A stretch of DNA of 64,000 nt from a virus (taxonomy: Duplodnaviria > Heunggongvirae > Uroviricota > Caudoviricetes). The translations under genes were made by a program, and so were the position numbers. The stretch covers positions 55,864-119,863 of IMG/VR virus record IMGVR_UViG_3300048850_000049. One strand, 5' to 3'. Below, one piece after another: positions 11,750 through 56,792 of this stretch; position 1 is the first letter of the stretch, and the number at the start of each line of letters is the position of its first letter. The notes under the pieces were generated by a model. It was given only the letters and a program-made list of their open reading frames with translations. It was not told where the DNA came from and did not search any database.

Positions 11750-13054
11750 ATGAACCAGGTAGTTGAAACTGGTGCAGTCACCGCTGCACCGGACGGGAAG
11801 ATTTTGTGCCATATCGATAACGTTCGCGTTCACTCGATCCAGTCGCACATCCAGAAAAACCATAAGGGCTGGACGATCGAAAAGTATCAGGCCGATTTTC
11901 CTGGTGAACCGATTCTGTCGGACACTGCAAAAACGCTGCTCGCCAAGCGTGAGCAGGAAATGAGCGCCGCGGCTAGTGCTGCGCCGGCCGCTGCATCAGT
12001 TCAGGCGCAGATGGTCGCCGACGCGACCGGCATGTCCGCTCCCCAGGTCATCGTCAATCAAGCGTTCTTCCACGATCTATTCGAACTTGGCGCTGCACCT
12101 TCTGCGCTCTCGACCAAGGGTCAGCCCATCCCGGTCAAGACGCTCTCCGGGCATGACAGCCTCTCGGCCGATTACCTGCCCGAGATCGACAAGGCGTATG
12201 TGTTCAACATTGATCTTCTCAAGAAGGTCATTATCGGCTTGGAACTGAATATTCCCTCCTATCTATGGGGCTATCACGGCACCGGCAAGACGACGCTCCT
12301 GCAGCAGGCTGCAGCGCGCACCCGCCGTCCGTTCATGCGCGTCCAGCATACGATCAATATGCAGGAGTCGGACGTTCTTGGTCAGTGGACCGTGCGTTCG
12401 CGGCCCGTTGAGGTGGAGCAAATCGACCAGACCGGTGTCAAGCACATGGTTGTTCAGCAGCAGTCCGTCACCGAGTTCCAGCTTGGACCGTTGCCGCTCG
12501 CGATGATCAACGGCTGGGTCTACTGCGCCGATGAATACGATTTCGCGATGCCGTCTGTAACTGCGGTCTATCAGCCGGTTCTCGAAGGCCAGGCGCTGAT
12601 CATCAAGGATGCTCCTGCACACTTCCGCAAGATCGTCCCGCATCCGAACTTCCGCTTCGTTGCAACCGGCAACACCAACGGCATCGGTGACGAAACCGGT
12701 CTCTATCAAGGCACGCTTGTGCAGAACGCAGCCAACTATTCCCGCTTCGGCATCACTGTCGAGGTCGAATACATGGAAGCGAAGATCGAACAGGCGATCC
12801 TCACCTCCAAGACCGGCATCGACGCGGCGAACGCCTCGAAGATCGTCAAGATGGCGAATGAGGTGCGCAAGATGTTCCGCGATGGCAAGATCACCATGAC
12901 GATCTCGCCGCGTGAGCTGCTCCGCTGCGCTTCGCTCGGGATCGCTTACGGCGGTAACTGGACGCTCGGTATGGAGCTCGCTTTCGCAAACCGTCTGTCG
13001 CGCGTCGATAAGAAGGTTGTCCAGGAATACATGCAGCGGGTGTTCGGATCTTGA
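11750..13054 (+). CDS. cobS: CobS-like AAA+ ATPase (AAA_5/MoxR type)
   Basis: Walker A GYHGTGKTTLL; follows the vWA partner directly; RBS AGAGGGAA. Confidence 0.6.
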   Translation: MNQVVETGAVTAAPDGKILCHIDNVRVHSIQSHIQKNHKGWTIEKYQADFPGEPILSDTAKTLLAKREQEMSAAASAAPAAASVQAQMVADATGMSAPQVIVNQAFFHDLFELGAAPSALSTKGQPIPVKTLSGHDSLSADYLPEIDKAYVFNIDLLKKVIIGLELNIPSYLWGYHGTGKTTLLQQAAARTRRPFMRVQHTINMQESDVLGQWTVRSRPVEVEQIDQTGVKHMVVQQQSVTEFQLGPLPLAMINGWVYCADEYDFAMPSVTAVYQPVLEGQALIIKDAPAHFRKIVPHPNFRFVATGNTNGIGDETGLYQGTLVQNAANYSRFGITVEVEYMEAKIEQAILTSKTGIDAANASKIVKMANEVRKMFRDGKITMTISPRELLRCASLGIAYGGNWTLGMELAFANRLSRVDKKVVQEYMQRVFGS

Positions 13055-13056
13055 GT

Positions 13057-13710
13057 ATGACGCAGTATCGCGATCCGAAGGAAAGCCGCGCCCAGATTAA
13101 GGCTTTCGCTCACAAGGTTCTCCGCCGGGTGCATTCACTCGGCGCGAGGACGCAGACACTGGACGATGTTGAGGGCGAATTGTGGGTAGCATGGTGCCTC
13201 GCCTGTGAACGCTTCAATCCGGAAGCAGGCTGCGCCTTCTCGACCTATCTCTACACGGGTATGCGCCGGCACATTAATCGCTGGATCGAAAAGAATTTCG
13301 AGCGCTTCCACGATGAGACGGTCGCCGCGTCCCTAGACGCTTCCTATGGGTCAGAGATGTCTGAGGATGGTTCGGGCTCGACGCTCGGCGAGGCAGTCGC
13401 TGACACGCATATGCGTCAAGACCAGGAATACGAGCAGAAGGATTGCTTCGCTTACGCCCTCACCCGGTTGTCTGACCGCGCCAAGATGTTCCTGACCTTC
13501 CTTAAGGATCATCCGCCCGAGCTGATGGCGCAGATGAAGGATCTCGAAGCGAAAGCGAAGCACGCGAAGGAACTTGGCGTCACCTATGCCATGCCCAACC
13601 GTCTCACCAGCTTCATGATCTTCGATTTCATGGGCGCTACTCGCGTCGAACGGAAGCAAATTATGGACGAGGTTGCCCAGGTGGGGCAGCTGATTTCGAA
13701 CCAGGGTTAA
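13057..13710 (+). CDS. Sigma-70 family protein (region 2-like)
   Basis: ERFNPEAGCAFSTYLYTGMRRHINRWIEK resembles sigma region 2.1-2.4 (FNPE.G..FSTY....IR..I); start overlaps the cobS stop. Confidence 0.55.
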   Translation: MTQYRDPKESRAQIKAFAHKVLRRVHSLGARTQTLDDVEGELWVAWCLACERFNPEAGCAFSTYLYTGMRRHINRWIEKNFERFHDETVAASLDASYGSEMSEDGSGSTLGEAVADTHMRQDQEYEQKDCFAYALTRLSDRAKMFLTFLKDHPPELMAQMKDLEAKAKHAKELGVTYAMPNRLTSFMIFDFMGATRVERKQIMDEVAQVGQLISNQG

Positions 13711-14260: not shown

Positions 14261-17200
14261 ATGCACTCAATTCTCGCAGCCCGCACTGACTTTTCAGTCG
14301 GTGAAAGCATCCTCACGACCAAGTTTCTCATCAAGAATGCGGTCGATGCGGGTGCCAAGGCAGTCGCGATGACGGATACCATGTCTGTCACCGGCATGAT
14401 CGACTTCACCGGCAAGGCGAAAGCTGCAGGATTGAAGCCTATTATCGGCGTCCGCCTGCGCCTGGTGGACAATCCGGAATGGCGTCCTGGCGACGGCGAG
14501 AAGAAGAAGGACATGCCGCGTCCCTACTTTCTGACGCTCTATGCGCTGAAAGAAGCTGGCATCAAGGCGATCTTCCGGCTGCTGACGCTCGCAAACGGCG
14601 CAAGTCGCTTTTATTACGAGCCGAAGCTCGGCTTCACGGATCTCTATGATGAACTGAGGGCCATCGAGGGTGACGAGTTGGCGATTGTCCTTGGCGATGC
14701 GCACTCGGTTCTGGAGCATCCTGACGCAGACGAGATCGTCCGCAATCTCAGCGCCGAGGTCACGCATCTTTATGCGCCGCTGATTCCTATCGACACGCCC
14801 TATTATGGGCGTCTTAACGAGATCGCCCTGCGGATTATCGCTGACACTTACGCCAAGCCGATTATCGTTCGTCCCGCCTTCTATGGTCAGGGCGAAGCTG
14901 ACACGCAGGAGATCATGACCGCGATCTCCGACAATCATAAGATTACCGATGGCTGGTTTAAGTCGCGTCACAACCGCGACATGCACGTCATGAGCCTGAC
15001 CGAACTCGTAGGTCAGATGAAGATTGCAGTCCAGCACCTTGAAAAGCGAGGCATTGTTGGCGCTGGCGCTGAGTTCAAGCAGGGGCTGCTCAACACGGGC
15101 GTTCTCGTCGCTGCCGTCGAATATGAATGGTCAAAGGCCGAGGTCTCGCTGCCTATCATGGCGCCTGATGAGTTCGCCGCTTTGCTGGAAGAATGCAAGA
15201 AGGGCTGGAAGATCCGCTTTGATGCTCCGGTCTTCGGACATCAACCGACGCCGGCCGAATTGTCGACCGTCTACAAGGAGCGGCTTGCCTACGAATTGCA
15301 GACGCTCAAGCGGCTCAACTTCTCGGGTTACTTCCTGCTCGTGCAGGACGTGGTGCAATTCGCCAAGAACAGCGACATTCTGGTTGGTCCTGGTCGTGGT
15401 TCCGTGGGCGGATCCCTTGTCGCTTATCTAATGGGCATTACCGAGTGCGATCCTATCCGGTTCGGGCTGCTTTTCGAGCGCTTCATCAATCCTGACCGTA
15501 TCGATCTTCCCGACGCCGATCTCGACTTCATGTCCGAGCGCCGGCACGAGATTTTCGAATACCTGGTCAAGAAGTATGGCGATGCGCGCGTCGCAGGCGT
15601 TTCGAACTTTGGAACGCTCGCTTCCGCCTCGTCAATCCGCGATGTTGGCCGCGTGACCAACATTCCTGAAAAGGACTATTCGGTCTCAAAGTTCGTGCCT
15701 AAGAAGAACGGTCAGAACATTCCCCTGCCCGACTGCCGCAAGGCAGTTCCCGAGATCGATGCGTTCGCTAACAACTATCCGGCTTTCTGGCCAATCATGG
15801 AACGGCTTGAAGGCACGATCCGCAACTTCGGACAGCACGCAGCTGGTGTGGTCGTCGGCGGAGTTGATCTTGTAGAGCGTGCCGTCATTGAACGGCGCAA
15901 GGACGGCTCTGTCGTCTGTTGGGACAAGCGCATCGTCGAGGATCAGGGCCTGGTCAAGATGGATATTCTTGGTCTTGTTACCCTCGATCTTATCAAGCTG
16001 ACGCTCGATTATGTTCGCGAACGTTCCGGCAAGCGTGTGGATATCAGCCGGATTCCCCTCGATGATGAGAAGGTTCTTGCGAACTTCGTCAAGGCGAACA
16101 CGACCGCGGTCTTTCAGTTCGAGTCCGGTGGTATGCGCCGGCTTCTGAAGGAACTCGGCTCGACCGGCTCGATCACGTTCGAGGATATCACCGCCGCAAC
16201 TGCTCTTTACCGTCCTGGTCCGATGGAATCGGGCATGATGGACAGCTTCTATCTGCGCAAGCAGGGGCATGAGACCATTGAATATGACCATCCGCTGATG
16301 GAGCCGGTGCTCGAGGAGACCTTCGGCGTCATCGTCTACCAGGAACAGGTCATGAAGATCTCCCAGGTGATTGCCGGCTACTCCGGTGCCGCTGCTGACA
16401 AGCTGCGCAAGATCATGGGTAAGAAGCTGCCCGAGGAAATGAAGAAGGAGCGCCAGAAGTTCTGCGATGGCTGCGTCGCCACGATTGCTTGCACCGAAGA
16501 ATGGGCAGGCGAGCTTTTCGACAAGATTGAAGGCTTCGCCGGCTACGGCTTCAACAAGAGCCACTCGGTCGAATACACGCTGATCTCCTACCAGGCGATG
16601 TGGCTCAAGACCTATCACGCCGTCGAGTTCTACGCGGCTGCCCTGACGCTTCTGAAGGAAGAAAAGCTGACTGGCATTATCCGCGATGCAAAGGCCCTCG
16701 GCATCGATGTATCCATGCCTGACATCAACATTTCGACCAACCGGTTCGAGATTGCGACGGACGCAAGGCTTGTGATGCCGTTCCAGCGTATCAAGGGACT
16801 GTCTCAGAAGGCGACTGACGCGATTATTAACGCTCGGGCGGCTGGTCCCTTCAAGGACAAGACCGACTTCCTCAATCGTGTGGAGAAGCGCGTCTGCAAC
16901 GTGAAGGTGCAAGGCGCTCTGGATCTTGTCGGCTCTTTTGCCCGCATCGAGCCTGGCCAGGTGGCCGCGAACGATCCGAGCCGCATCAAGGACCAGATCG
17001 AGCTCCTGCCCGGTCTCATCGCCGTCCATGTGCCTATCGATCATGAACTCAACCGCGACAAGGATACGAAGGTCGCGCTCGGCGAGCTGGTTGACGAATA
17101 TCGCGCAGCGCACGGTCCTGCCGCAACGGTCGCTGACGGATATCCGGTCAAGCCGTTCTTCGGCAAGGAAGCGTCTGCGATGGTGATCTCGGATGCTCCC

Positions 17201-17620
17201 GGCAATGAGGAAGATACGGGCGGCATCATGGGCTTCTCGATGTCAAACAACTCCGTCATCGAGGCGCTGGAAGAAAATAGCCTTGATAGAACGCATATTT
17301 ACTGGACGGCGCTCATCAAGCGTCCGAAGCGCGGCAAGCAGGTCACGCCTGACGAAATTGCGATGTATTGGCCGTATCTCGAAAAGGAGATCGAGATCCT
17401 GCAGCCGCCTATCATCGTGCTTCTCGGCTCGCAGACGGTTCGCCACTTCATGCCCGACTTCAAGGGCAAGGCGTCCGACATGGCCGGCAAGGTAGTCTAT
17501 TCGAAGAAGTATGACGCAAACCTGGTGATCGGCTTCTCGCCTGGCGAAATCTACCATGATCCGGACAAGCAGACGAACATGAATGAGGTCTTCTCCTCAG
17601 TTGCGGACATGCTGGCATGA
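14261..17620 (+). CDS. dnaE: DNA polymerase III alpha (compact DnaE) fused to a C-terminal degenerate UDG family-4-like domain
   Basis: N-terminal PHP (ILAARTDFSVGESIL..), GYGFNKSHSVEY polymerase core, HhH; C-terminal about 180 aa aligns to family-4 UDG (ISDAPGNEEDTGG, PIIVLLGSQ, GFSPGE) with GE->SD and HP->SP substitutions and no Fe-S cysteines. Confidence 0.8.
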   Translation: MHSILAARTDFSVGESILTTKFLIKNAVDAGAKAVAMTDTMSVTGMIDFTGKAKAAGLKPIIGVRLRLVDNPEWRPGDGEKKKDMPRPYFLTLYALKEAGIKAIFRLLTLANGASRFYYEPKLGFTDLYDELRAIEGDELAIVLGDAHSVLEHPDADEIVRNLSAEVTHLYAPLIPIDTPYYGRLNEIALRIIADTYAKPIIVRPAFYGQGEADTQEIMTAISDNHKITDGWFKSRHNRDMHVMSLTELVGQMKIAVQHLEKRGIVGAGAEFKQGLLNTGVLVAAVEYEWSKAEVSLPIMAPDEFAALLEECKKGWKIRFDAPVFGHQPTPAELSTVYKERLAYELQTLKRLNFSGYFLLVQDVVQFAKNSDILVGPGRGSVGGSLVAYLMGITECDPIRFGLLFERFINPDRIDLPDADLDFMSERRHEIFEYLVKKYGDARVAGVSNFGTLASASSIRDVGRVTNIPEKDYSVSKFVPKKNGQNIPLPDCRKAVPEIDAFANNYPAFWPIMERLEGTIRNFGQHAAGVVVGGVDLVERAVIERRKDGSVVCWDKRIVEDQGLVKMDILGLVTLDLIKLTLDYVRERSGKRVDISRIPLDDEKVLANFVKANTTAVFQFESGGMRRLLKELGSTGSITFEDITAATALYRPGPMESGMMDSFYLRKQGHETIEYDHPLMEPVLEETFGVIVYQEQVMKISQVIAGYSGAAADKLRKIMGKKLPEEMKKERQKFCDGCVATIACTEEWAGELFDKIEGFAGYGFNKSHSVEYTLISYQAMWLKTYHAVEFYAAALTLLKEEKLTGIIRDAKALGIDVSMPDINISTNRFEIATDARLVMPFQRIKGLSQKATDAIINARAAGPFKDKTDFLNRVEKRVCNVKVQGALDLVGSFARIEPGQVAANDPSRIKDQIELLPGLIAVHVPIDHELNRDKDTKVALGELVDEYRAAHGPAATVADGYPVKPFFGKEASAMVISDAPGNEEDTGGIMGFSMSNNSVIEALEENSLDRTHIYWTALIKRPKRGKQVTPDEIAMYWPYLEKEIEILQPPIIVLLGSQTVRHFMPDFKGKASDMAGKVVYSKKYDANLVIGFSPGEIYHDPDKQTNMNEVFSSVADMLA

Positions 17621-18243
17621 TGCCCCGGCCGGAACACTTTGTCCGGCTGGTGTCAGTGGAGCCGGAGAAGAAGACCCTGCTACAGAAGCTTGGAGATTTC
17701 GTCAGCGGGATCTTCAAGCCTGATACCGAGGCCGAAGATCGCCGCAACGCTGAATGGGCAAAGCTCCTAACGGCTAAGCAACCTGTGCCGCGGGCTCCTA
17801 TGCGAAGTCCGATGCTTATTCGGCCGCAGCAGGCGAAAATCTCAGGCAGTCCCACCAAGATTGGTTACGACGCCCCTCAACACCTGCCTGTCTGCGCAAG
17901 CGGAAACATCATTCTCTACGAGGACTTGGTTTTCGGAAGGTATTCAATGGAAGAATGGAACGACATGGAAGAGGAAGAACGCGAAGAGGTTCTCGAAGAG
18001 TGGAACGCCAACGTTGAAATGAGCGAACACGACAAGATTTCCAACCTCGCTACTTTCGGTATTCAGCCGCCCGTGCCTATCGATCCGCAAGAAGCTGCGG
18101 TTCGTCGTATGCACGAGAGGGCGGTTGCCAACAATCTCGCCCGCGACATGGAAGCCCACAAGAAGAAGCTGGAACTTGAGCTGGCAGAAGCCGAGGAGCG
18201 GGAGAAGCATTACACCGGCAACGCAATTTTCGGCGCGTTCTAA
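17617..18243 (+). CDS. Hypothetical protein with C-terminal AIFGAF tail
   Basis: ATG overlaps the dnaE stop (ATGA); ends ..GNAIFGAF. Confidence 0.45.
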   Translation: MMPRPEHFVRLVSVEPEKKTLLQKLGDFVSGIFKPDTEAEDRRNAEWAKLLTAKQPVPRAPMRSPMLIRPQQAKISGSPTKIGYDAPQHLPVCASGNIILYEDLVFGRYSMEEWNDMEEEEREEVLEEWNANVEMSEHDKISNLATFGIQPPVPIDPQEAAVRRMHERAVANNLARDMEAHKKKLELELAEAEEREKHYTGNAIFGAF

Positions 18244-18244
18244 A

Positions 18245-18275
18245 TGCGCGTCCCGAGCGCAGTCTCGCTATAATT
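18245..18275 (+). promoter_or_regulatory. Promoter (TGCGCGTCCCGAG .. TCGCTATAA), no palindrome
   Basis: Upstream of gene 18300. Confidence 0.45.
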
Positions 18276-18299
18276 TCACTCTCAACAAGGAAATAGAAC

Positions 18300-18866
18300 A
18301 TGACGACTCCGACGACGGCCGACGCCGCAAAGGAAGTTACGACCTATCCGGTCAGGGACTTTCTCGACGCTCATCAATTGAAGAAGGATCTCGCCTTCTC
18401 TCCCAACAACCTGACGGATGCCATGATTCAGCAGGCGTCGATGTTCTCGCATTATGGCGTGCTTGCGGCCGACGCATCCCGTCAGGTCGACGTGGTGAAG
18501 ATGCTGCTTGAGAATACCGAGGCAGCAGTTTCCCAGATCATCCGCGATGAAGTGGCAAAGGCCGGCGAAAAGGTGACTGAGGCCGGAATCGCAACCAAGA
18601 TCGCCCGTCATCAGCGCGTCGTATCGATGAAGAAGGCTTTGAACGAAGCCAAGCGCATCGAAGCCATCGGCAAGACCGCAGTTGAGTCCTTCCGGCACCG
18701 GCGTGACATGCTGGTGCAGCTCGGGCTCATCAGCCGTGAAGAAATGAAGGGTGAGCTTCGGATCGGCGAAAAGTCGGCCCGTGAACAGGCGGCCGAGACG
18801 TCCAAGGAGCTTGCTCTTTCGCGCCTTGCCCGGAAGAACACCGTAAGCGAAAATTCTGACAATTAA
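18300..18866 (+). CDS. Hypothetical protein
   Basis: Preceded by the GCTATAA promoter motif and an RBS. Confidence 0.45.
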   Translation: MTTPTTADAAKEVTTYPVRDFLDAHQLKKDLAFSPNNLTDAMIQQASMFSHYGVLAADASRQVDVVKMLLENTEAAVSQIIRDEVAKAGEKVTEAGIATKIARHQRVVSMKKALNEAKRIEAIGKTAVESFRHRRDMLVQLGLISREEMKGELRIGEKSAREQAAETSKELALSRLARKNTVSENSDN

Positions 18867-18867
18867 G

Positions 18868-18915
18868 TGCAATCCCTTTCATTTTGCGCTATAAAGTAAG
18901 TAAGCACTTACTTAG
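18868..18915 (+). promoter_or_regulatory. Promoter (GTGCAATCCC .. TTTGCGCTATAA) plus palindrome AGTAAGTAAGCACTTACTTAG
   Basis: Upstream of gene 18943. Confidence 0.55.
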
Positions 18916-18942
18916 TGTGAATCCTCTCTACTGGAGAATATC

Positions 18943-19206
18943 ATGAACAACCTGATCGAACTTTTACTCCGCCTCATTGGTCGCGAGCGTTCCATCGAAA
19001 CCATCACTTCCGCAGGAAACAAGGTCATCCGTGACCTGGACAATCTTGCCGCCCGTCACCAGGCAAAGCACGCCGCAGCCGCCAAGCGCGCTGCACTTGC
19101 TGCCGCCCAGGCCGAGCAGAACCGCTTTGCAGCGGAAGACGCAGCTGAACTCTCTTCCAACTGGAAGAACTCCGGATTGGTCCGCCCGAGCCGCAAGGCC
19201 GCGTAA
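18943..19206 (+). CDS. Hypothetical small helical protein
   Basis: Promoter motif plus palindrome upstream; RBS GGAGAA. Confidence 0.35.
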   Translation: MNNLIELLLRLIGRERSIETITSAGNKVIRDLDNLAARHQAKHAAAAKRAALAAAQAEQNRFAAEDAAELSSNWKNSGLVRPSRKAA

Positions 19207-19222
19207 TGGACTGATAAACTTA

Positions 19223-19279
19223 TGCGATCCCATGCCGAGGTCGCTATAAGTGAATTAGCTAAATAGCTATCTAGCTATG
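19223..19279 (+). promoter_or_regulatory. Promoter (TGCGATCCCATG .. CGCTATAA) plus a second operator type TTAGCTAAATAGCTATCTAGCTA
   Basis: Upstream of the SSB gene; the same TAGCTA-repeat operator recurs at 54861. Confidence 0.55.
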
Positions 19280-19287
19280 AAGCAGGA

Positions 19288-19322
19288 ACAAAGCACAAAG
19301 TCAAAAGAACAAAGGAACAAAG
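19288..19322 (+). repeat. (ACAAAG)x5 tandem-like repeat in the 5' leader of the SSB gene
   Basis: GAACAAAGCACAAAGTCAAAAGAACAAAGGAACAAAGC immediately before ATG 19324. Confidence 0.7.
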
Positions 19323-19323
19323 C

Positions 19324-20382
19324 ATGGCTCTTAGCCCCGAACTTAAGAAGATGGTCTCTGGCGCGAAGAATAAGTATTCTGGCGGTTCTGGAAAGACCAT
19401 CAAGCCCAAGGAAGGTCGCAACACCTACCGCATTCTGGCTCCGACCAGCGCCCAGGCTCCCTGGGTTCCTGCATCCGGTCAGTATTGGGCAGATCTTGGC
19501 GTTCACTGGATCAAGGCAGACGTAAACAGCAACAAGCCGCTCGTCGTCTGTGGCGACTGCGACACTGTTTATCAGCAGCCCTCCGTCCTGAACACCGCGA
19601 TCGAGATGGCGATTAACTCCGCTATCGATGAAGAGTCCAAGAAGCTCTACGAGGATTGGAAGGCTTCGAAGTCCGTCATCGTCAACGTGATCGACCGCTC
19701 GCTCGGTGAAGATCCGCAGGTTCTTGAACTGACGCCGACCACTTTCGGCAAGGTCATGGATCTGATCAACATCTACGACGACGCCGGCCAGGACATCACT
19801 AGTCCGCTTACCGGAACCGACATCATCGTGACCAAGACCGGCAAGGGTCTCAACACGAAGTATGACGTTGCCGTCTCGCCTGCCCCGAGTGCACCGCTTT
19901 CCGCGGACGTTCTCGGCCGCGTAACTGATCTGCACGCCTTCATTGCGCAGAACTACTTCCGCGGTGAAGAACAGAAGGCTCTGAACGCCATCGCCCAGAT
20001 TGCCGGCGTTGCTGTTCCTGCCCTGACCGGACCTTCCGGTGCGGCCGGTGTTCGCACTCCGACTGCTGCTCTGGCCTCTCCGTCTGCTACTGTTGCAGGC
20101 GCCCAGGTTGCAGCCGCTGTCGCAACTGCCCCTGCAGCTGTCGCTGCCGCCGCTGTGGCTCCGGCTGCCGCTGTTGCCGCTGCTCCTGCCGCAGAAGATC
20201 CTGCAATTGCTGCACGTCGCGCCGAAATTCTGCGTCGTCAGCAGGAAGCTGAAGCCGAGCTTGCCGCTCTGTCTCAGCCTGCAGTTGAACCTGCAGCTGC
20301 CGCGGCTCCCGCTGCCGGCATCTCCTCGCTGCCTGTTTCCGAACAGGACGCGATCCTCGCCGAACTCGATAACCTCGTGTAA
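19324..20382 (+). CDS. gp32-like ssDNA-binding protein with an Ala/Pro-rich insert and acidic C-terminal tail
   Basis: YRILAPTSAQAPW...GVHWIK..CGDCD..VYQQP...LYEDWKASKSVIVNVID resembles the T4 gp32 core (IRFLPSKNDEQAPF..H..C..C..; KEYSLVKRKTSYWANILVV); acidic C-terminus SEQDAILAELDNLV. Confidence 0.5.
   Translation: MALSPELKKMVSGAKNKYSGGSGKTIKPKEGRNTYRILAPTSAQAPWVPASGQYWADLGVHWIKADVNSNKPLVVCGDCDTVYQQPSVLNTAIEMAINSAIDEESKKLYEDWKASKSVIVNVIDRSLGEDPQVLELTPTTFGKVMDLINIYDDAGQDITSPLTGTDIIVTKTGKGLNTKYDVAVSPAPSAPLSADVLGRVTDLHAFIAQNYFRGEEQKALNAIAQIAGVAVPALTGPSGAAGVRTPTAALASPSATVAGAQVAAAVATAPAAVAAAAVAPAAAVAAAPAAEDPAIAARRAEILRRQQEAEAELAALSQPAVEPAAAAAPAAGISSLPVSEQDAILAELDNLV
19990..20340 (+). repeat. Coding Ala/Pro-rich low-complexity linker inside the SSB-like gene
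   Basis: PALTGPSGAAGVRTPTAALASPSATVAGAQVAAAVATAPAAVAAAAVAPAAAVAAAPAAE... Confidence 0.7.
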
Positions 20383-20392
20383 CGCGCTTCGT

Positions 20393-20442
20393 CCGGCGGG
20401 TTCCCCTCCCCGCCGGGCTTCCTCCATCGTCGCGGATGGAGG
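20393..20442 (+). terminator. Two tandem GC-rich hairpins after the SSB gene (CCGGCGGG..CCCGCCGG; CCTCCATC..GATGGAGG)
   Basis: Perfect 8-bp stems; no T-run. Confidence 0.35.
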
Positions 20443-20495
20443 GTCGATGGTGACGGCGCTCAATGCGTCGTCACCTTTCCCTTTGAGAGGTTTCA

Positions 20496-21446
20496 ATGTC
20501 CAAGAATTACATGCTGGTCGATGGCAACTCGCTGGGCCACTTTCACAATAACGCCGCTAGGCTGTCGATCGGCGAAATGCAGGTCCAGGCGATCTTCGGC
20601 TTTCTTCGCGCGCTGAGACAGCAGGTCGCGAACTATCAGAATTACACTCCGGTCGTCCTTTGGGATGGTGCGTCGTGGCGCAAGCTCATGTTCGCTGCCT
20701 ACAAGGAGAACCGCGACAAAAAGGAAACGAAGAACGAAGTAAAAATGCAAGCCATGAAGGACGCTTACAAGCTCCAGGTGCCATACATCAAGAAGGCTTT
20801 GCGTTTCCTCGGCATTCCCCAGGTCTGGGCCCTCAATATGGAAGCCGATGATCTCGGCGCCATCCTGACCGACCGTTACACCGCATCCGGCGCGAAGATC
20901 ATTCTTCTGACCGGCGATAAGGACTGGCTGCAGCTGGTTGGACCGGGTGTTGTCTGGCGCGACTTCGCCAATGATCGGCTGGTCAATGAGAAGAACTTTG
21001 CGGAATTCACCGGCGTCGACACCATCCGGCAGTTCATCGAGGTCAAGGCTCTAGCTGGCGACATGGGCGACAATATTGCTGGCGTAGGTGGCATCGGTCA
21101 GAAGGGCGCGGTTGATTTCATCAAGGAATATGGCTCCGTCGCCAACTTTACCAATGGCTGCATTCTCGAAAAGTCCATCGATGTCAGCAAGTTGCCGAAG
21201 AAGTATCGGAACTTGGTTGAAGATGAGGATAAGGCGATCACGTTCAATCGCAACATCGACCTGATGGACCTTCGCACCACGATGCGTCCCGCGCCCGTCA
21301 ACCTGCAGATCGATAAGGGCACGCCCGACAAGGAGAAGTTCCAGACGTTCTGCGACCTGCTCCTTTTCAAGTCGATCACCCAGGAGTTCGAGGAATGGCT
21401 CCGCGTATTCCCGCATTTCCGCGAGCAGTTCTCGCTCGCCGCTTAG
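20496..21446 (+). CDS. 5'-3' exonuclease / flap endonuclease (FEN, RNase H-like)
   Basis: LVDGNSLGHF and LLTGDKDWLQLV motifs typical of Pol I-type 5' nucleases. Confidence 0.8.
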   Translation: MSKNYMLVDGNSLGHFHNNAARLSIGEMQVQAIFGFLRALRQQVANYQNYTPVVLWDGASWRKLMFAAYKENRDKKETKNEVKMQAMKDAYKLQVPYIKKALRFLGIPQVWALNMEADDLGAILTDRYTASGAKIILLTGDKDWLQLVGPGVVWRDFANDRLVNEKNFAEFTGVDTIRQFIEVKALAGDMGDNIAGVGGIGQKGAVDFIKEYGSVANFTNGCILEKSIDVSKLPKKYRNLVEDEDKAITFNRNIDLMDLRTTMRPAPVNLQIDKGTPDKEKFQTFCDLLLFKSITQEFEEWLRVFPHFREQFSLAA

Positions 21447-21465: not shown

Positions 21466-22572
21466 ATGAGTAGTCCCGCAGATATTATGAAGGCGCTGAC
21501 CGGCGTCATCGGCGACAACGACGAAGAGGCAACCGTCAAGCATTATCTCGACACCGGCTTCCCGCCGCTCAACAACGCCTCGGCTTCCGATTGGAACGGT
21601 GGATTGCCTGTTGGGCGCGTGATCGAGATCGCCGGTCCTCCGTCATCCGGCAAGACCGCAATCGCAACCAAGGCAATGGCTGCGGCACAGGCTGCAGGCG
21701 GTGTTGCTGGCTTTATGGACCATGAGCGGTCGTTCTCGATGGGTTTGGCACCGAAGCTCGGTCTCGATATCACGCCTGGCCGCCTGATCTACAAGAAGCC
21801 GCAGACGTTCGAGGATTCAGTTGCGATCTTCCACCTGGCCGTCAAGACGATCCGCGATAAGAAGCTGATCGCCAAGGATGCACCGATCTGTTGGGTATTC
21901 GACAGCCTTGCCGCAATGGTCCCTCAGTCTGTTTTGACGGACTCGAAGGGCAAGGAGCGCGATGCGACTGACCGCAACATGAACGACAACACGGCACTTG
22001 CCCGTGCAACGTCGGCGCATTTCCCGGCGATCGCCATGATTGCAGAGCAGTATGACGTTCTGGTCATCTTCCTCAATCAGATCCGCACCAAGATCGGCGT
22101 TGTGTTCGGTGATCCGCGCAAGACGACGGGTGGCGACAGCCCTGCTTTCTACTTCTCGCAGCGTCTCTGGCTTTCGGCCGCACAGATCCAGGACTCGGTG
22201 ACGAAGGAAGTCATCGGCATGAAGGTTACGGGTTCGTTCGTCAAGAACAAGGTCGCCCGTCCCTTTGCAAAGGCATCCTGGCGCTTCATGTTCATGCCCG
22301 ACGGAACTGGACGCTTTGACGCCGAAGGCAGCCTGGTAGACTTCCTTGTCGATCAGAAGCTGCTTCCGACCGTCAAGCCGGACGGCAAGGATTGCCGCAA
22401 GGGCTATGTGATGTGGGATGGTAAGGAAGTCTCGCGTAACGCGCTCGGCAAGGTCATCGAGGCGGAAGGTGCTGCTGGCTATAACAAGCTGAAGGCATTG
22501 CTGCCGGCCAAGTATGAGGCGCCGGTCGTCTCTGAGGTCGAAATGGACGAGCTTGCAGCCGAAGCAGCCTAA
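21466..22572 (+). CDS. recA: RecA recombinase
   Basis: GRVIEIAGPPSSGKT Walker A; VIFLNQIRTKIGVVFGDPRKTTGG matches the RecA L2/ATPase core. Confidence 0.85.
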   Translation: MSSPADIMKALTGVIGDNDEEATVKHYLDTGFPPLNNASASDWNGGLPVGRVIEIAGPPSSGKTAIATKAMAAAQAAGGVAGFMDHERSFSMGLAPKLGLDITPGRLIYKKPQTFEDSVAIFHLAVKTIRDKKLIAKDAPICWVFDSLAAMVPQSVLTDSKGKERDATDRNMNDNTALARATSAHFPAIAMIAEQYDVLVIFLNQIRTKIGVVFGDPRKTTGGDSPAFYFSQRLWLSAAQIQDSVTKEVIGMKVTGSFVKNKVARPFAKASWRFMFMPDGTGRFDAEGSLVDFLVDQKLLPTVKPDGKDCRKGYVMWDGKEVSRNALGKVIEAEGAAGYNKLKALLPAKYEAPVVSEVEMDELAAEAA

Positions 22573-28452: not shown

Positions 28453-28499
28453 CGCAGTCCCGATAGATTTGCGCTATAAAGTAAGTAAGCACTTATTTA
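28453..28499 (+). promoter_or_regulatory. Promoter (CGCAGTCCCGAT .. TTTGCGCTATAA) plus palindrome AGTAAGTAAGCACTTATTTAC
   Basis: Upstream of gene 28513. Confidence 0.55.
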
Positions 28500-28512
28500 C
28501 TAGGAGATCGAA

Positions 28513-32597: not shown

Positions 32598-32645
32598 TGC
32601 AGTCCCGAGAACATTTCGCTATAAGTTAAGTAAGCACTTACTGAC
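32598..32645 (+). promoter_or_regulatory. Promoter (TGCAGTCCCGAG .. CGCTATAA) plus palindrome GTTAAGTAAGCACTTACTGAC
   Basis: Upstream of gene 32655; overlaps the upstream terminator. Confidence 0.55.
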
Positions 32646-41521: not shown

Positions 41522-41568
41522 AGCACTCCCTCGACTTGCGCGCTATAAAGTAAGTAAGCACTTAATTA
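41522..41568 (+). promoter_or_regulatory. Promoter (GCACTCCCTCGAC .. GCGCTATAA) plus palindrome AGTAAGTAAGCACTTAATTAT
   Basis: Upstream of the RNA ligase gene. Confidence 0.55.
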
Positions 41569-45743: not shown

Positions 45744-45795
45744 CTACCGCACTCCAAATTCAATCGCGCTATAAACTAAGTAAGAAATTACTTAG
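45744..45795 (+). promoter_or_regulatory. Promoter (CTACCGCACTCCAA .. CGCGCTATAAAC) plus palindrome CTAAGTAAGAAATTACTTAG
   Basis: Ends 1 nt before ATG 45797. Confidence 0.55.
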
Positions 45796-54684: not shown

Positions 54685-54860
54685 TTATTCCTGTCCTGTT
54701 AATGCTTGTAGGATGACATTCCTATACGCTGGGTAAACAGAGTCAACCGTGATTCATCGGTTTTATTGTGGAAGAGAAGAAGCCTGCCGCAAACCAAGCT
54801 GCGCTGAGATACATTTAAACATGTCAAACATCAAGAGTCGGAGCGAAAAGATTTAGCCAT

Positions 54861-54879
54861 ATAGCTATTTAGCTAGTAT
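54861..54879 (+). promoter_or_regulatory. TAGCTA-repeat operator ATAGCTATTTAGCTAGTAT (second copy of the 19255 element)
   Basis: Upstream of gene 55015. Confidence 0.4.
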
Positions 54880-55014
54880 ATTGCTCCGATTGAGTAAAAG
54901 GAGCAGAGACAATGGTGAATCCTGTAGCGAAATCATTACGATCCCCGATGTTGCGGCAGCAGAAGTTGAAGCCCCGCAAGGGGCGTGGATCCTATACCCG
55001 GAAGGATAAAAACA

Positions 55015-55419
55015 ATGAAAATCAACAAACTCGACCGCGCAGAACACCGCCTGCTTTCGACGGCGATGATTGCAGCCCTTAAAGATGTTGGGGATAAGTT
55101 CGGCGTCGACTTCACCGCAGCCGGCGGGGTCATCGGTATGGGCGATGGCGTCGTGAAGATCGGTGTCAAGATCCGGGATACCGGCAATGGTGTTTCCGGC
55201 GCGAAGCGGGATTGGAACATCTGGGCAGAGCGCTACGGTTTGACCAAGGAAATGTTCGGCGAGACTATCGTTCTCCAGAACACCGCCTACAAGATCGTAG
55301 GAATCAAGCCCGGCAGCCCGAAATACACGGTCCAGATCGAACGGCTCTACGACAAGAAGATTTTCGGCACCACTGTATTGTCAGTCACCCGCGCGTTGCC
55401 TAAGAAGATCGCTGCTTAA
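55015..55419 (+). CDS. Hypothetical protein
   Basis: TAGCTA-repeat operator upstream; RBS GAAGGA. Confidence 0.45.
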   Translation: MKINKLDRAEHRLLSTAMIAALKDVGDKFGVDFTAAGGVIGMGDGVVKIGVKIRDTGNGVSGAKRDWNIWAERYGLTKEMFGETIVLQNTAYKIVGIKPGSPKYTVQIERLYDKKIFGTTVLSVTRALPKKIAA

Positions 55420-55722: not shown

Positions 55723-55920
55723 CTATTCCTGGCTGATCGGGAAGACTTCTGCGCCGACGAAGAACGCCTCTCTCAATATCTGATCGAGGTTAACTTCGCT
55801 CGCCTCGAGAAACTGGACTACATCAAAGGAGTATTTCCTTTGCGCAAAGTGATGTTCCACGACATTAAGAACAGCAGCCCTCAATTCAGTCAGCTGCCCT
55901 TCAAATTCACACCTATGCAT
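55723..55920 (-). CDS. Small hypothetical protein, paralog of 54475..54684
   Basis: ATGCAT start with an AAGGAAAA RBS; shares a terminator with the convergent + gene. Confidence 0.4.
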   Translation of the reverse strand: MHRCEFEGQLTELRAAVLNVVEHHFAQRKYSFDVVQFLEASEVNLDQILREAFFVGAEVFPISQE

Positions 55921-56727: not shown

Positions 56728-56774
56728 CGCAATCCCATTTTCTTTTGCGCTATAACATAAGTAATCGCTTACTT
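56726..56774 (+). promoter_or_regulatory. Promoter (ACGCAATCCCAT .. TTTGCGCTATAAC) plus palindrome TAAGTAATCGCTTACTTA
   Basis: Upstream of gene 56793. Confidence 0.55.
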
Positions 56775-56792
56775 ACTGCAGGAGACTCCCCC

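Follow-up and report, generated by a model that had tools for sequence, protein, structure and literature searches.

Single-stranded DNA-binding proteins (SSBs) usually combine a disordered linker with an acidic tip, and in Escherichia coli SSB this acidic tip recruits partner proteins. The gene V protein of the filamentous phages f1 and M13 binds single-stranded DNA (ssDNA) cooperatively; excess protein occupies an unstructured leader, and translation of the gene II mRNA is thereby repressed. The closest described system is gene 32 of phage T4, whose operator consists of a 5′ pseudoknot and then more than 40 nucleotides (nt) of less structured RNA with UUAAA/UAAA repeats and the ribosome-binding site (RBS); gp32 coats this operator on its own message cooperatively once ssDNA is saturated, and the T4 literature still calls its discrimination of its own mRNA unclear (PMC535899). 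Here we describe a gp32-type SSB gene, and above all its leader, in the IMG/VR virus record IMGVR_UViG_3300048850_000049, of which positions 55,864 to 119,863 were analysed; this whole stretch of 64,000 nt is called the window, and coordinates are those of the window unless another genome is named. The source is a ~120-kb Rhizobium siphophage with phage-plasmid features. Among named phages, the Rhizobium phages V1VFA-S, B1VFA and RHph_X66 come nearest to it (~74–75% nucleotide identity), RHEph10-like phages being farther away. B1VFA and V1VFA-S are siphophages that carry parA, parB and repC, that is, they are phage-plasmid-like (PMC12509600). A literature search found no published description of this SSB leader, which we consider a candidate autogenous translational operator. 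The two features on which the argument turns are:

19284..19323, + strand: A-rich, U-poor leader tract of five ACAAAG-like units, which has the Shine–Dalgarno (SD) sequence AAGGA (19312–19316) inside it and abuts the ATG
19324..20382, + strand: SSB gene, encoding an N-terminal helix (residues 5–18), a core (residues ~25–227), a disordered tail (residues 228–337) and an acidic tip helix (residues 338–351)

A distant member of the gp32 family

The open reading frame (ORF) at 19324..20382 encodes a 352-residue protein that is a distant member of the T4 gp32 SSB family. Its ATG lies 7 nt downstream of the SD, and the start codon is sound because homologues keep the same N terminus (consensus MALxPALxKMVSxAKNKY, with M1, P5 and L7 nearly invariant). 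Residues 30–217 match positions 2–199 of the 208-position gp32 profile PF08804 with 39.5 bits (E 7.9e-10), above the gathering score of 26.8 bits; most homologues also carry a precomputed PF08804 match, and PHROG 1192 (SSB) is matched with an E value of 8e-39. An AlphaFold2 model has a predicted local distance difference test score (pLDDT) above 93 for residues ~25–227, and Foldseek against the Protein Data Bank (PDB) returns gp32 cores as the sole significant neighbours (2A1K, E 1e-6; 1GPC, 5.3e-6; 8GME, 9.6e-6). All of the top five matches are gp32 cores from RB69 or T4 (E 1e-6 to 7e-5, probability 1.00), the next match having an E value of 0.26, and the structural alignments give a template modelling score of ~0.62 on the target at 13–15% identity. 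Sequence searches of the PDB missed gp32: the single SSB sequence gave only chance matches to coronavirus spike (E 0.005 or worse), and a profile of 46 SSB sequences gave nothing, gp32 included. Family membership rests for this reason on the Pfam match and the fold search. An hhalign comparison of the SSB family with the T4 gp32 sequence alone is weak (E 0.059) but collinear over 184 columns, and served for residue mapping only; the T4 query agrees fully with the GenBank T4 entry at residues 1–275 (100% identity). An earlier note on this DNA, made from its letters alone, had proposed a gp32-like SSB and named 1GPC for comparison, and both family and fold are borne out, 1GPC being among the fold matches though not found by sequence or profile.

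The conserved N-terminal helix predicted at residues 5–18 is likely to be the cooperativity segment. Two overlapping ORFs were rejected as genes: the one from the upstream ATG at 19277 (82 residues, out of frame) is not conserved, V1VFA-S having ATG CCG CAA GTC TAA there, and the antisense ORF at 19267..20496 (409 residues) is of the kind that GC-rich codon usage commonly produces. The SSB itself is an ordinary protein, its homologues in related Rhizobium phages being already labelled SSB in GenBank, with the Pfam domain.

A repeat-built, unstructured leader

The leader tract carries exact ACAAAG units at 19288, 19295, 19309 and 19317 and the variant CAAAAG at 19302, which together fill 19288–19322. 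The five ACAAAG-like units described in the earlier note are therefore there, four of them exact; a hexamer period is not, since the units are spaced by 7, 7, 7 and 8 nt, and Tandem Repeats Finder likewise reports a period of 7 or 8. ACAAAG is not in excess in the window (23 copies against 24.2 expected), and it is the clustering that stands out: four copies within 35 nt occurred in 0 of 300 first-order Markov simulations, in which the largest cluster was 2, with a Poisson bound of ~8e-6. The region upstream of the SSB gene, comprising this tract and a TAGCTA repeat just before it, holds the two most 7/8-periodic 42-nt stretches of the 64 kb.

Composition and predicted structure agree with the earlier view of the leader as unstructured. 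The 40 nt at 19284–19323 contain 24 A and a single T, and only one other 40-nt stretch in the window, within coding sequence, is equally A-rich. The tract is unpaired in both the minimum free energy (MFE) and the centroid structure, the latter being unpaired throughout. An Rfam scan of 19100–20600 gave no credible family.

Conservation of the architecture and restriction to the SSB gene

The leader was compared over the 130 nt before each SSB start at 79 loci from viral contigs plus 5 GenBank phages. The dereplicated set comprises 56 leaders, down to ~40% SSB protein identity, and composition was taken from 51 unique sequences. Nearly all relatives share one order of elements, a GCTATAA −10-like motif, three T[AC]GC[TG]A units of period 8, a 40–60-nt A/C-rich, U-poor repeat tract, an SD and the ATG. 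The two upstream elements correspond in the window to:

19224..19249, + strand: phage promoter-like motif GCGATCCC-N11-GCTATAA, a window-wide motif conserved upstream of the relatives' SSB genes
19256..19277, + strand: TAGCTA ×3, period 8, with units U1 at 19256, U2 at 19264 and U3 at 19272, of which the last two make up an inverted repeat or RNA hairpin

Positions −45 to −1 of the relatives average 45% A, 26% C, 20% G and 9% T (median T fraction 0.089 over the 56 leaders), against 16–35% A and 18–27% T in the leaders of the 5′–3′ exonuclease gene (FEN), the RecA gene and other neighbours. Across the 56 leaders the autocorrelation is highest at lags 7 (z = 13.3) and 8 (z = 12.5), with harmonics at 14–16, and 41 of them have 7 or 8 as their best lag. 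The commonest heptamer, AAAGCAC, occurs 42 times in 28 of the 56 leaders, but the unit sequences drift among lineages (CAAAGC, CCAAGC, CGAAC in leaders L027 and L029, ATCTGC in L020) while the layout stays the same. Mean folding energy from −50 to +15 is −7.0 kcal/mol for SSB leaders, compared with −16.2 for FEN and −13.4 for RecA leaders. What is conserved in the leader is its architecture.

Within the window and within one complete related genome, this architecture is confined to one gene. The other leaders behind GCTATAA promoters in the window, which run 26–88 nt from the −10 to the start codon (74 nt for the SSB gene), have no such tract; most of them contain an AGTAAG-N4-CTTACT inverted repeat, with an SD soon after. 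In the complete V1VFA-S genome (118,231 bp) the SSB leader is the only strongly 7-nt-periodic, A-rich, T-poor tract, and leaders of the ordinary kind precede the genes for the major capsid protein, portal, tape measure and helicase. A generic high-expression device is disfavoured because the tract is unique to the SSB gene and missing at the capsid, portal and tape-measure genes. An A-rich leader at 69659 of V1VFA-S was considered as an equivalent element and rejected, as it is not strongly periodic and contains a hairpin.

The unit sequence was also looked for farther afield. Among 120 listed matches to AAAGCAC-N0-2-AAAGCAC in viral contigs none stands ahead of a gp32-like ORF, a search in which chance matches dominate and which is uninformative. 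Separately, an unrelated T4-like phage, Stenotrophomonas phage BUCT608 (L090), has AAAGCACAgtAAAGCACA, two copies of AAAGCAC, ~45 nt before its gene 32 start at 224, in a leader that is likewise U-poor (12% T).

A proposed autogenous operator and its alternatives

The reading that we favour for the leader, by analogy with T4 and with a probability of about 0.5, is an operator for autogenous translational control of the gp32 type. The transcript would begin near TAGCTA ×3 and continue into ~45 nt of unfoldable A/C/G sequence with a single U, made of five 7–8-nt units, with the SD inside and the last unit touching the AUG. As long as ssDNA was available, the SSB would be titrated onto it and the open leader would be translated efficiently; once free SSB accumulated, it would coat the tract cooperatively, cover SD and AUG and stop its own translation. 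Autogenous repression is favoured because the leader is gene-specific, 40–60 nt long, unfoldable, built of repeats, and covers the sequence from the SD to the AUG. No longer unstructured stretch was found in the genome, and in this GC-rich phage the tract is by far the most open RNA lattice; it is here that RNA binding by SSB, and hence repression, would take place.

A more specific version is a phased operator, in which each 7–8-nt unit would seat one SSB in register, so that a short sequence preference, repeated at least five times, together with cooperativity would yield specificity for the mRNA without a pseudoknot. The occluded site of gp32 is 8 ± 2 nt (PMC12893549), but the match between this value and the unit period is only suggestive, and we regard phasing as unlikely.

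Several points weigh against autogenous control. Binding of the SSB to leader RNA is carried over from T4, where the repeats are TTAAA with a period of 5 and not 7–8, so that the match of period to footprint is without precedent. No pseudoknot was predicted, only the simple U2:U3 hairpin, although no dedicated pseudoknot search was run; and the 5′ TAGCTA element occurs at other intergenic sites as well, which makes it unlikely to be an SSB-specific nucleation site. The transcription start is a prediction from the promoter-like sequence at 19224–19249. The lack of structure follows from composition alone (shuffled leaders fold at −7.5 kcal/mol, the real ones at −7.0), identity within the tract is only modestly higher than at four-fold sites among close relatives (~0.65 against ~0.56), and an unstructured tract would suit a leader that only enhances expression just as well.

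The last point describes the main alternative, which we think possible but on the whole doubtful, namely a leader for constitutive expression and stability, acting with no feedback from the SSB through an open 30S standby site, an SD kept accessible in a GC-rich transcriptome and a depletion of U that may evade RNase E. In E. coli, leaders rich in A or in CA are known to enhance translation, and the single-stranded sites that RNase E prefers contain U. Such a leader would keep the yield of the SSB, which is required in stoichiometric quantity, high and stable, and it is compatible with feedback, so that both could hold. The tract is indeed unstructured with the SD inside it, composition explains its low folding energy, and the drift of the units (CAAAGC, CCAAGC, CGAAC) is what would be expected if only composition mattered. 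A composition-only function, however, has no need of the 7–8-nt periodicity found in 41 of the 56 lineages, and it leaves unexplained why the major capsid, portal and tape-measure genes, which are expected to be highly expressed, are without such a leader, the tract being unique to the SSB gene across the whole V1VFA-S genome.

If the periodicity is to be explained by a ligand, that ligand might be something other than the SSB: a phage protein, host factor or small RNA that recognizes the units by sequence and times or tunes SSB translation. Tandem arrays are typical of multivalent RNA binders, a core of AAAGCAC or AAGCA recurs in 28–41 of the 56 leaders, and AAAGCAC occurs twice in the gene 32 leader of the unrelated Stenotrophomonas phage. 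Yet lineages with quite different units (ATCTGC in L020; CGAAC in L027 and L029) keep the same architecture, inspection shows neither the GGA of CsrA-type sites nor the 3-nt ARN period of the Hfq distal face, there is no Rfam match, and no candidate regulator was identified; we judge this reading distinctly improbable. Least credible to us is a role for the repeats in DNA, as an operator, iteron or origin-like array. The adjoining TAGCTA ×3 does behave like a DNA operator, being palindromic and recurring between genes, and the relatives are phage-plasmids with repC, parA and parB, but the tract is in every case found downstream of the −10-like motif and ahead of the start codon, running into the SD, is strand-asymmetric (A-rich and T-poor in the sense strand), has a 7–8-bp period that is off the DNA helical repeat, and is present in only one copy per genome. 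Autogenous control by the SSB remains the reading that we prefer.

The upstream TAGCTA element

The TAGCTA element that precedes the tract is present as three T[AC]GC[TG]A units in 36 of the 56 dereplicated relatives. Complementarity between U2 and U3 is kept through double changes: 91.5% of cells are paired, with 18 double-change cells, a result reached in 0 of 500 shuffles, and all four complementary U2:U3 combinations occur. Pairing of U1 with U2 is no different from that in shuffles, and U1:U3 is weaker than U2:U3. The U2:U3 hairpin is predicted at −8.7 kcal/mol, and the covariation would suit an RNA hairpin at the 5′ end as well as a DNA palindrome.

The element is not private to the SSB gene. 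The window has just one further TAGCTA-type triple repeat, at 54854–54875, which stands ahead of an ArfA-like ORF, and V1VFA-S has period-8 TAGCTA-like arrays at at least seven intergenic sites (L085, near 1443, 11510, 13441, 20173, 26421 and 46746; L086, 36055, genome coordinate 86055). This distribution suggests a regulon that includes the SSB gene and is controlled through the element, and TAGCTA ×3 is most likely a shared regulatory site, whether operator or generic 5′ hairpin. A role as an SSB-specific nucleation site, the counterpart of the T4 pseudoknot, was rejected as the main reading on account of the recurrence of these arrays at 54854–54875 and at the V1VFA-S sites.

The ORF behind the second window copy (54912–55082, + strand, 56 residues, MVNPVAKSLRSPMLRQQKLKPRKGRGSYTRK...) matches PF03889 (ArfA, alternative ribosome-rescue factor A) with 29.1 bits against a cut-off of 25.5 and would, from this profile match, be a phage-encoded ArfA. 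Its upstream element at 54854–54882, in which the repeat is joined to TATATT, reads like a sigma-70 promoter, TAGCCA-N17-TATATT.

Loss of the zinc ligands

Within the SSB core the segment equivalent to the zinc-binding part of gp32 is retained, with other residues at the ligand positions:

19504..19593, + strand: gp32 zinc subdomain remnant, in which H61 is kept, D78, S87 and N90 replace the Cys ligands, and C76 and C79 are non-canonical

The plausible H..C..C..C ligand set of the earlier note does not survive the alignment. The SSB has only two Cys in total, C76 and C79, neither of them at a canonical position; T4 C77, C87 and C90 correspond to D78, S87 and N90 in both the family alignment and the hhalign comparison with T4 gp32. 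H61, opposite T4 H64, is retained by 44 of 46 sequences in the family alignment and so is nearly invariant. Over 121 sequences (the SSB and 120 homologues), the four-ligand pattern is HDSN in 67 and HCCC in 5, and these five are distant members that retain a T4-like CPVC. Since a few distant relatives (5 of 121) keep H-C-C-C, the loss of the Cys ligands in this SSB clade is secondary.

A structural zinc might still be held in this protein by H61, C76 and C79 (as a CGDC knuckle) with a fourth ligand such as D78 or D80, a proposal that we find very unlikely. It draws on the near-invariance of H61 and on the placement of the CxxC, found in this sequence alone, at the junction of strand 74–77 and helix 79–83. 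Against it, C76 is found in this SSB alone, 45 of 46 aligned homologues having Val, Leu or Ile there, only 23 of 46 aligned sequences have C79, and the closest relatives (77–84% identity) have a single Cys in the region; the canonical positions themselves are D, S and N in 67 of 121 sequences, with full HCCC in only five, and AlphaFold2 models the subdomain at pLDDT ~96 without any metal information. A makeshift H61/C76/C79 site in this one SSB lacks evolutionary support. By its sequence the SSB is best described as a new, apparently zinc-less member of a known family, and the secondary loss of His-Cys3 in most of that family offers a useful natural test of what zinc contributes to the stability and cooperativity of gp32.

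A family-typical tail with an acidic tip

Beyond the core, the C-terminal region divides into two parts:

20005..20334, + strand: Ala/Pro-rich disordered region, containing the RTPTAALAS motif and a helix at residues 293–316 (from AlphaFold2 pLDDT, tail alignment and composition)
20335..20379, + strand: acidic amphipathic C-terminal tip SEQDAILAELDNLV, the last 15 residues, with a helix predicted at 338–351

Residues 228–337 are 53% Ala plus Pro and mostly predicted to be disordered, pLDDT falling below 50 at residues 237–287. This richness in Ala and Pro is the expected product of a 56% GC genome. The region had been seen as an unusual linker or insert, which it is not: the post-core length of 142 residues is typical of the family (median 132, range 72–165), and a conserved motif and a helix lie inside it. 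The near-invariant motif is (R/K)TPTAAL(T/A)S, embedded in an otherwise variable disordered tail and reading RTPTAALAS here (residues 243–251, 20050–20076), with T245, P246, A249, L250 and S252 nearly invariant; it is probably a docking or regulatory motif. The helix, predicted at residues 293–316 (20200–20271) with pLDDT 83–90, is common to many family members.

The acidic C-terminal tail noticed earlier was confirmed, and the acidity is confined to the end: the last 21 residues contain four acidic and no basic residues, and the remainder of the C-terminal region is Ala/Pro-rich and neutral. The tip SEQDAILAELDNLV has a net charge of −4, with D342, L345 and L348 nearly invariant, and is likely to be a docking site for partner proteins.

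Genomic context and transcription signals

The SSB gene lies in a module of replication and recombination genes. Upstream are the PolIII-alpha gene (14261–17620) and then three small ORFs; downstream are FEN (20496–21446) and a gene for a RecA/UvsX-like recombinase (21466–22572). From its place in this PolIII-alpha/SSB/FEN/RecA module, the protein is the replication and recombination SSB of the phage. Gene order is the same in all named relatives, some of which have the SSB annotated. As a separate observation, PolIII-alpha (1119 residues) appears C-terminally extended, and its RHEph10 homologue is annotated with a uracil-DNA-glycosylase-like domain.

A scan of 18000–21000 for the sigma-70 consensus gave no promoter, a result explained by the phage's own promoter-like GCTATAA motif. 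Against an expectation of 4.4, the window contains GCTATAW 30 times, nearly always on the coding (+) strand and 26–88 nt ahead of an ORF start, and ~20 of the GCTATAA copies share GCnnTCCC-N11-12-GCTATAA. Sites include 8473, 18267, 18888, 19243, 23542 and 28473, and further promoter-like sites are at 32618, 37612, 41542, 45768, 50156 and 56749. The window encodes a sigma-70-family factor (phrog_351, 13051–13710) that could read this motif.

About 13 of the GCTATAA promoters are directly followed by the inverted repeat (A)AGTAAG-N4-CTTACT(T), for example at 18895–18914, 28480–28500, 32625–32645, 41549–41568, 45775–45795 and 56756–56776, and in V1VFA-S the repeat also stands ahead of the genes for the capsid, portal, tape measure and helicase. 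Either most phage transcripts carry it as a 5′ stem-loop, or it serves as a common operator.

The 3′ side of the gene is strongly structured:

20391..20484, + strand: three strong hairpins after the SSB stop (~20391–20418, ~20420–20443 and 20449–20475), the last followed by UUUCCCUUU, a U-run

The sequence from 20380 to 20498 folds at an MFE of −63.1 kcal/mol (z = −5.5), the site at 20449–20475 is terminator-like, and the relatives' FEN leaders show a similar hairpin and T-run. Because the promoter-like motif at 19224–19249 lies before it and the terminator-like hairpins at 20391–20484 after it, the SSB gene looks like its own transcription unit, with a transcription start predicted from the promoter-like motif. 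Three consecutive hairpins in the 113-nt SSB–FEN spacer amount to more structure than one terminator requires.

Implications

What is new here is that a large lineage distant from T4, with GC-rich hosts and phage-plasmid-like genomes, keeps a gene-specific, unstructured, repeat-built leader before a gp32-type gene. If the leader is an autogenous operator, gp32-style translational feedback would long predate the T4-like phages and extend far beyond them, and would work without a pseudoknot, U-rich repeats or a zinc site; the more than 50 diverged natural variants would then give comparative leverage on how gp32 recognizes its own mRNA. Were the operator also phased, the 56 diverged variants and the zinc-less gp32 proteins that go with them would lend themselves to comparative study of own-message recognition by a non-specific SSB.

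Comparison with known systems

The resemblance to gp32 of T4 and RB69 (PF08804; 1GPC, 2A1K and 8GME) extends from the core fold and Pfam family, which are the same, to the order of an N-terminal segment, a core and a flexible C-terminal region with an acidic amphipathic tip, and to a function within a phage module for replication and recombination. The three zinc Cys of gp32 are D78, S87 and N90 in the SSB, and by inspection the SSB has no KRKST-like ('LAST') motif, including in its N-terminal helix. The C-terminal region of the SSB is ~125 residues long and Ala/Pro-rich with an internal helix, whereas that of T4 gp32 is ~50 residues and Ser/Asp-rich (PMC535899). By eye, the tip SEQDAILAELDNLV resembles DLDDLLNDL of T4 gp32.

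The E. coli-type SSB shares with the phage SSB a long, low-complexity disordered linker and a short, conserved tip that is acidic and hydrophobic, but the two are not homologous and differ in core fold, gp32 being monomeric and cooperative. The linkers also differ, Gly/Gln/Pro-rich in the E. coli type and Ala/Pro-rich in the phage SSB, with the RTPTAAL(T/A)S motif and a helix. With the f1/M13 gene V protein the likeness is one of concept, an excess ssDNA binder that represses translation; its fold is unrelated, its target is the mRNA of another gene, and that system has no such repeat array.

For the leader, the nearest comparison is the gene 32 operator of T4 and RB69. The 5′ element of the SSB leader is a simple inverted repeat common to other loci, in place of a pseudoknot. 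The repeats are also of another kind: T4 has tandem UUAAA/UAAA elements with a period of 5 and 27% U, and the SSB leader has ACAAAG/AAAGCAC units, of the general form (C)AAAGC(AC), with a period of 7–8 and almost no U. Shared are a foldable element at the 5′ end, a run of more than 40 nt of unstructured RNA with A-rich repeats, an SD leading to the AUG, and the restriction of the leader to the SSB gene; at 19284–19323, an unstructured region of at least 40 nt includes the RBS and reaches the AUG. The SSB leader thus resembles the T4 gene 32 operator in layout, analogous to it in form and not in sequence.

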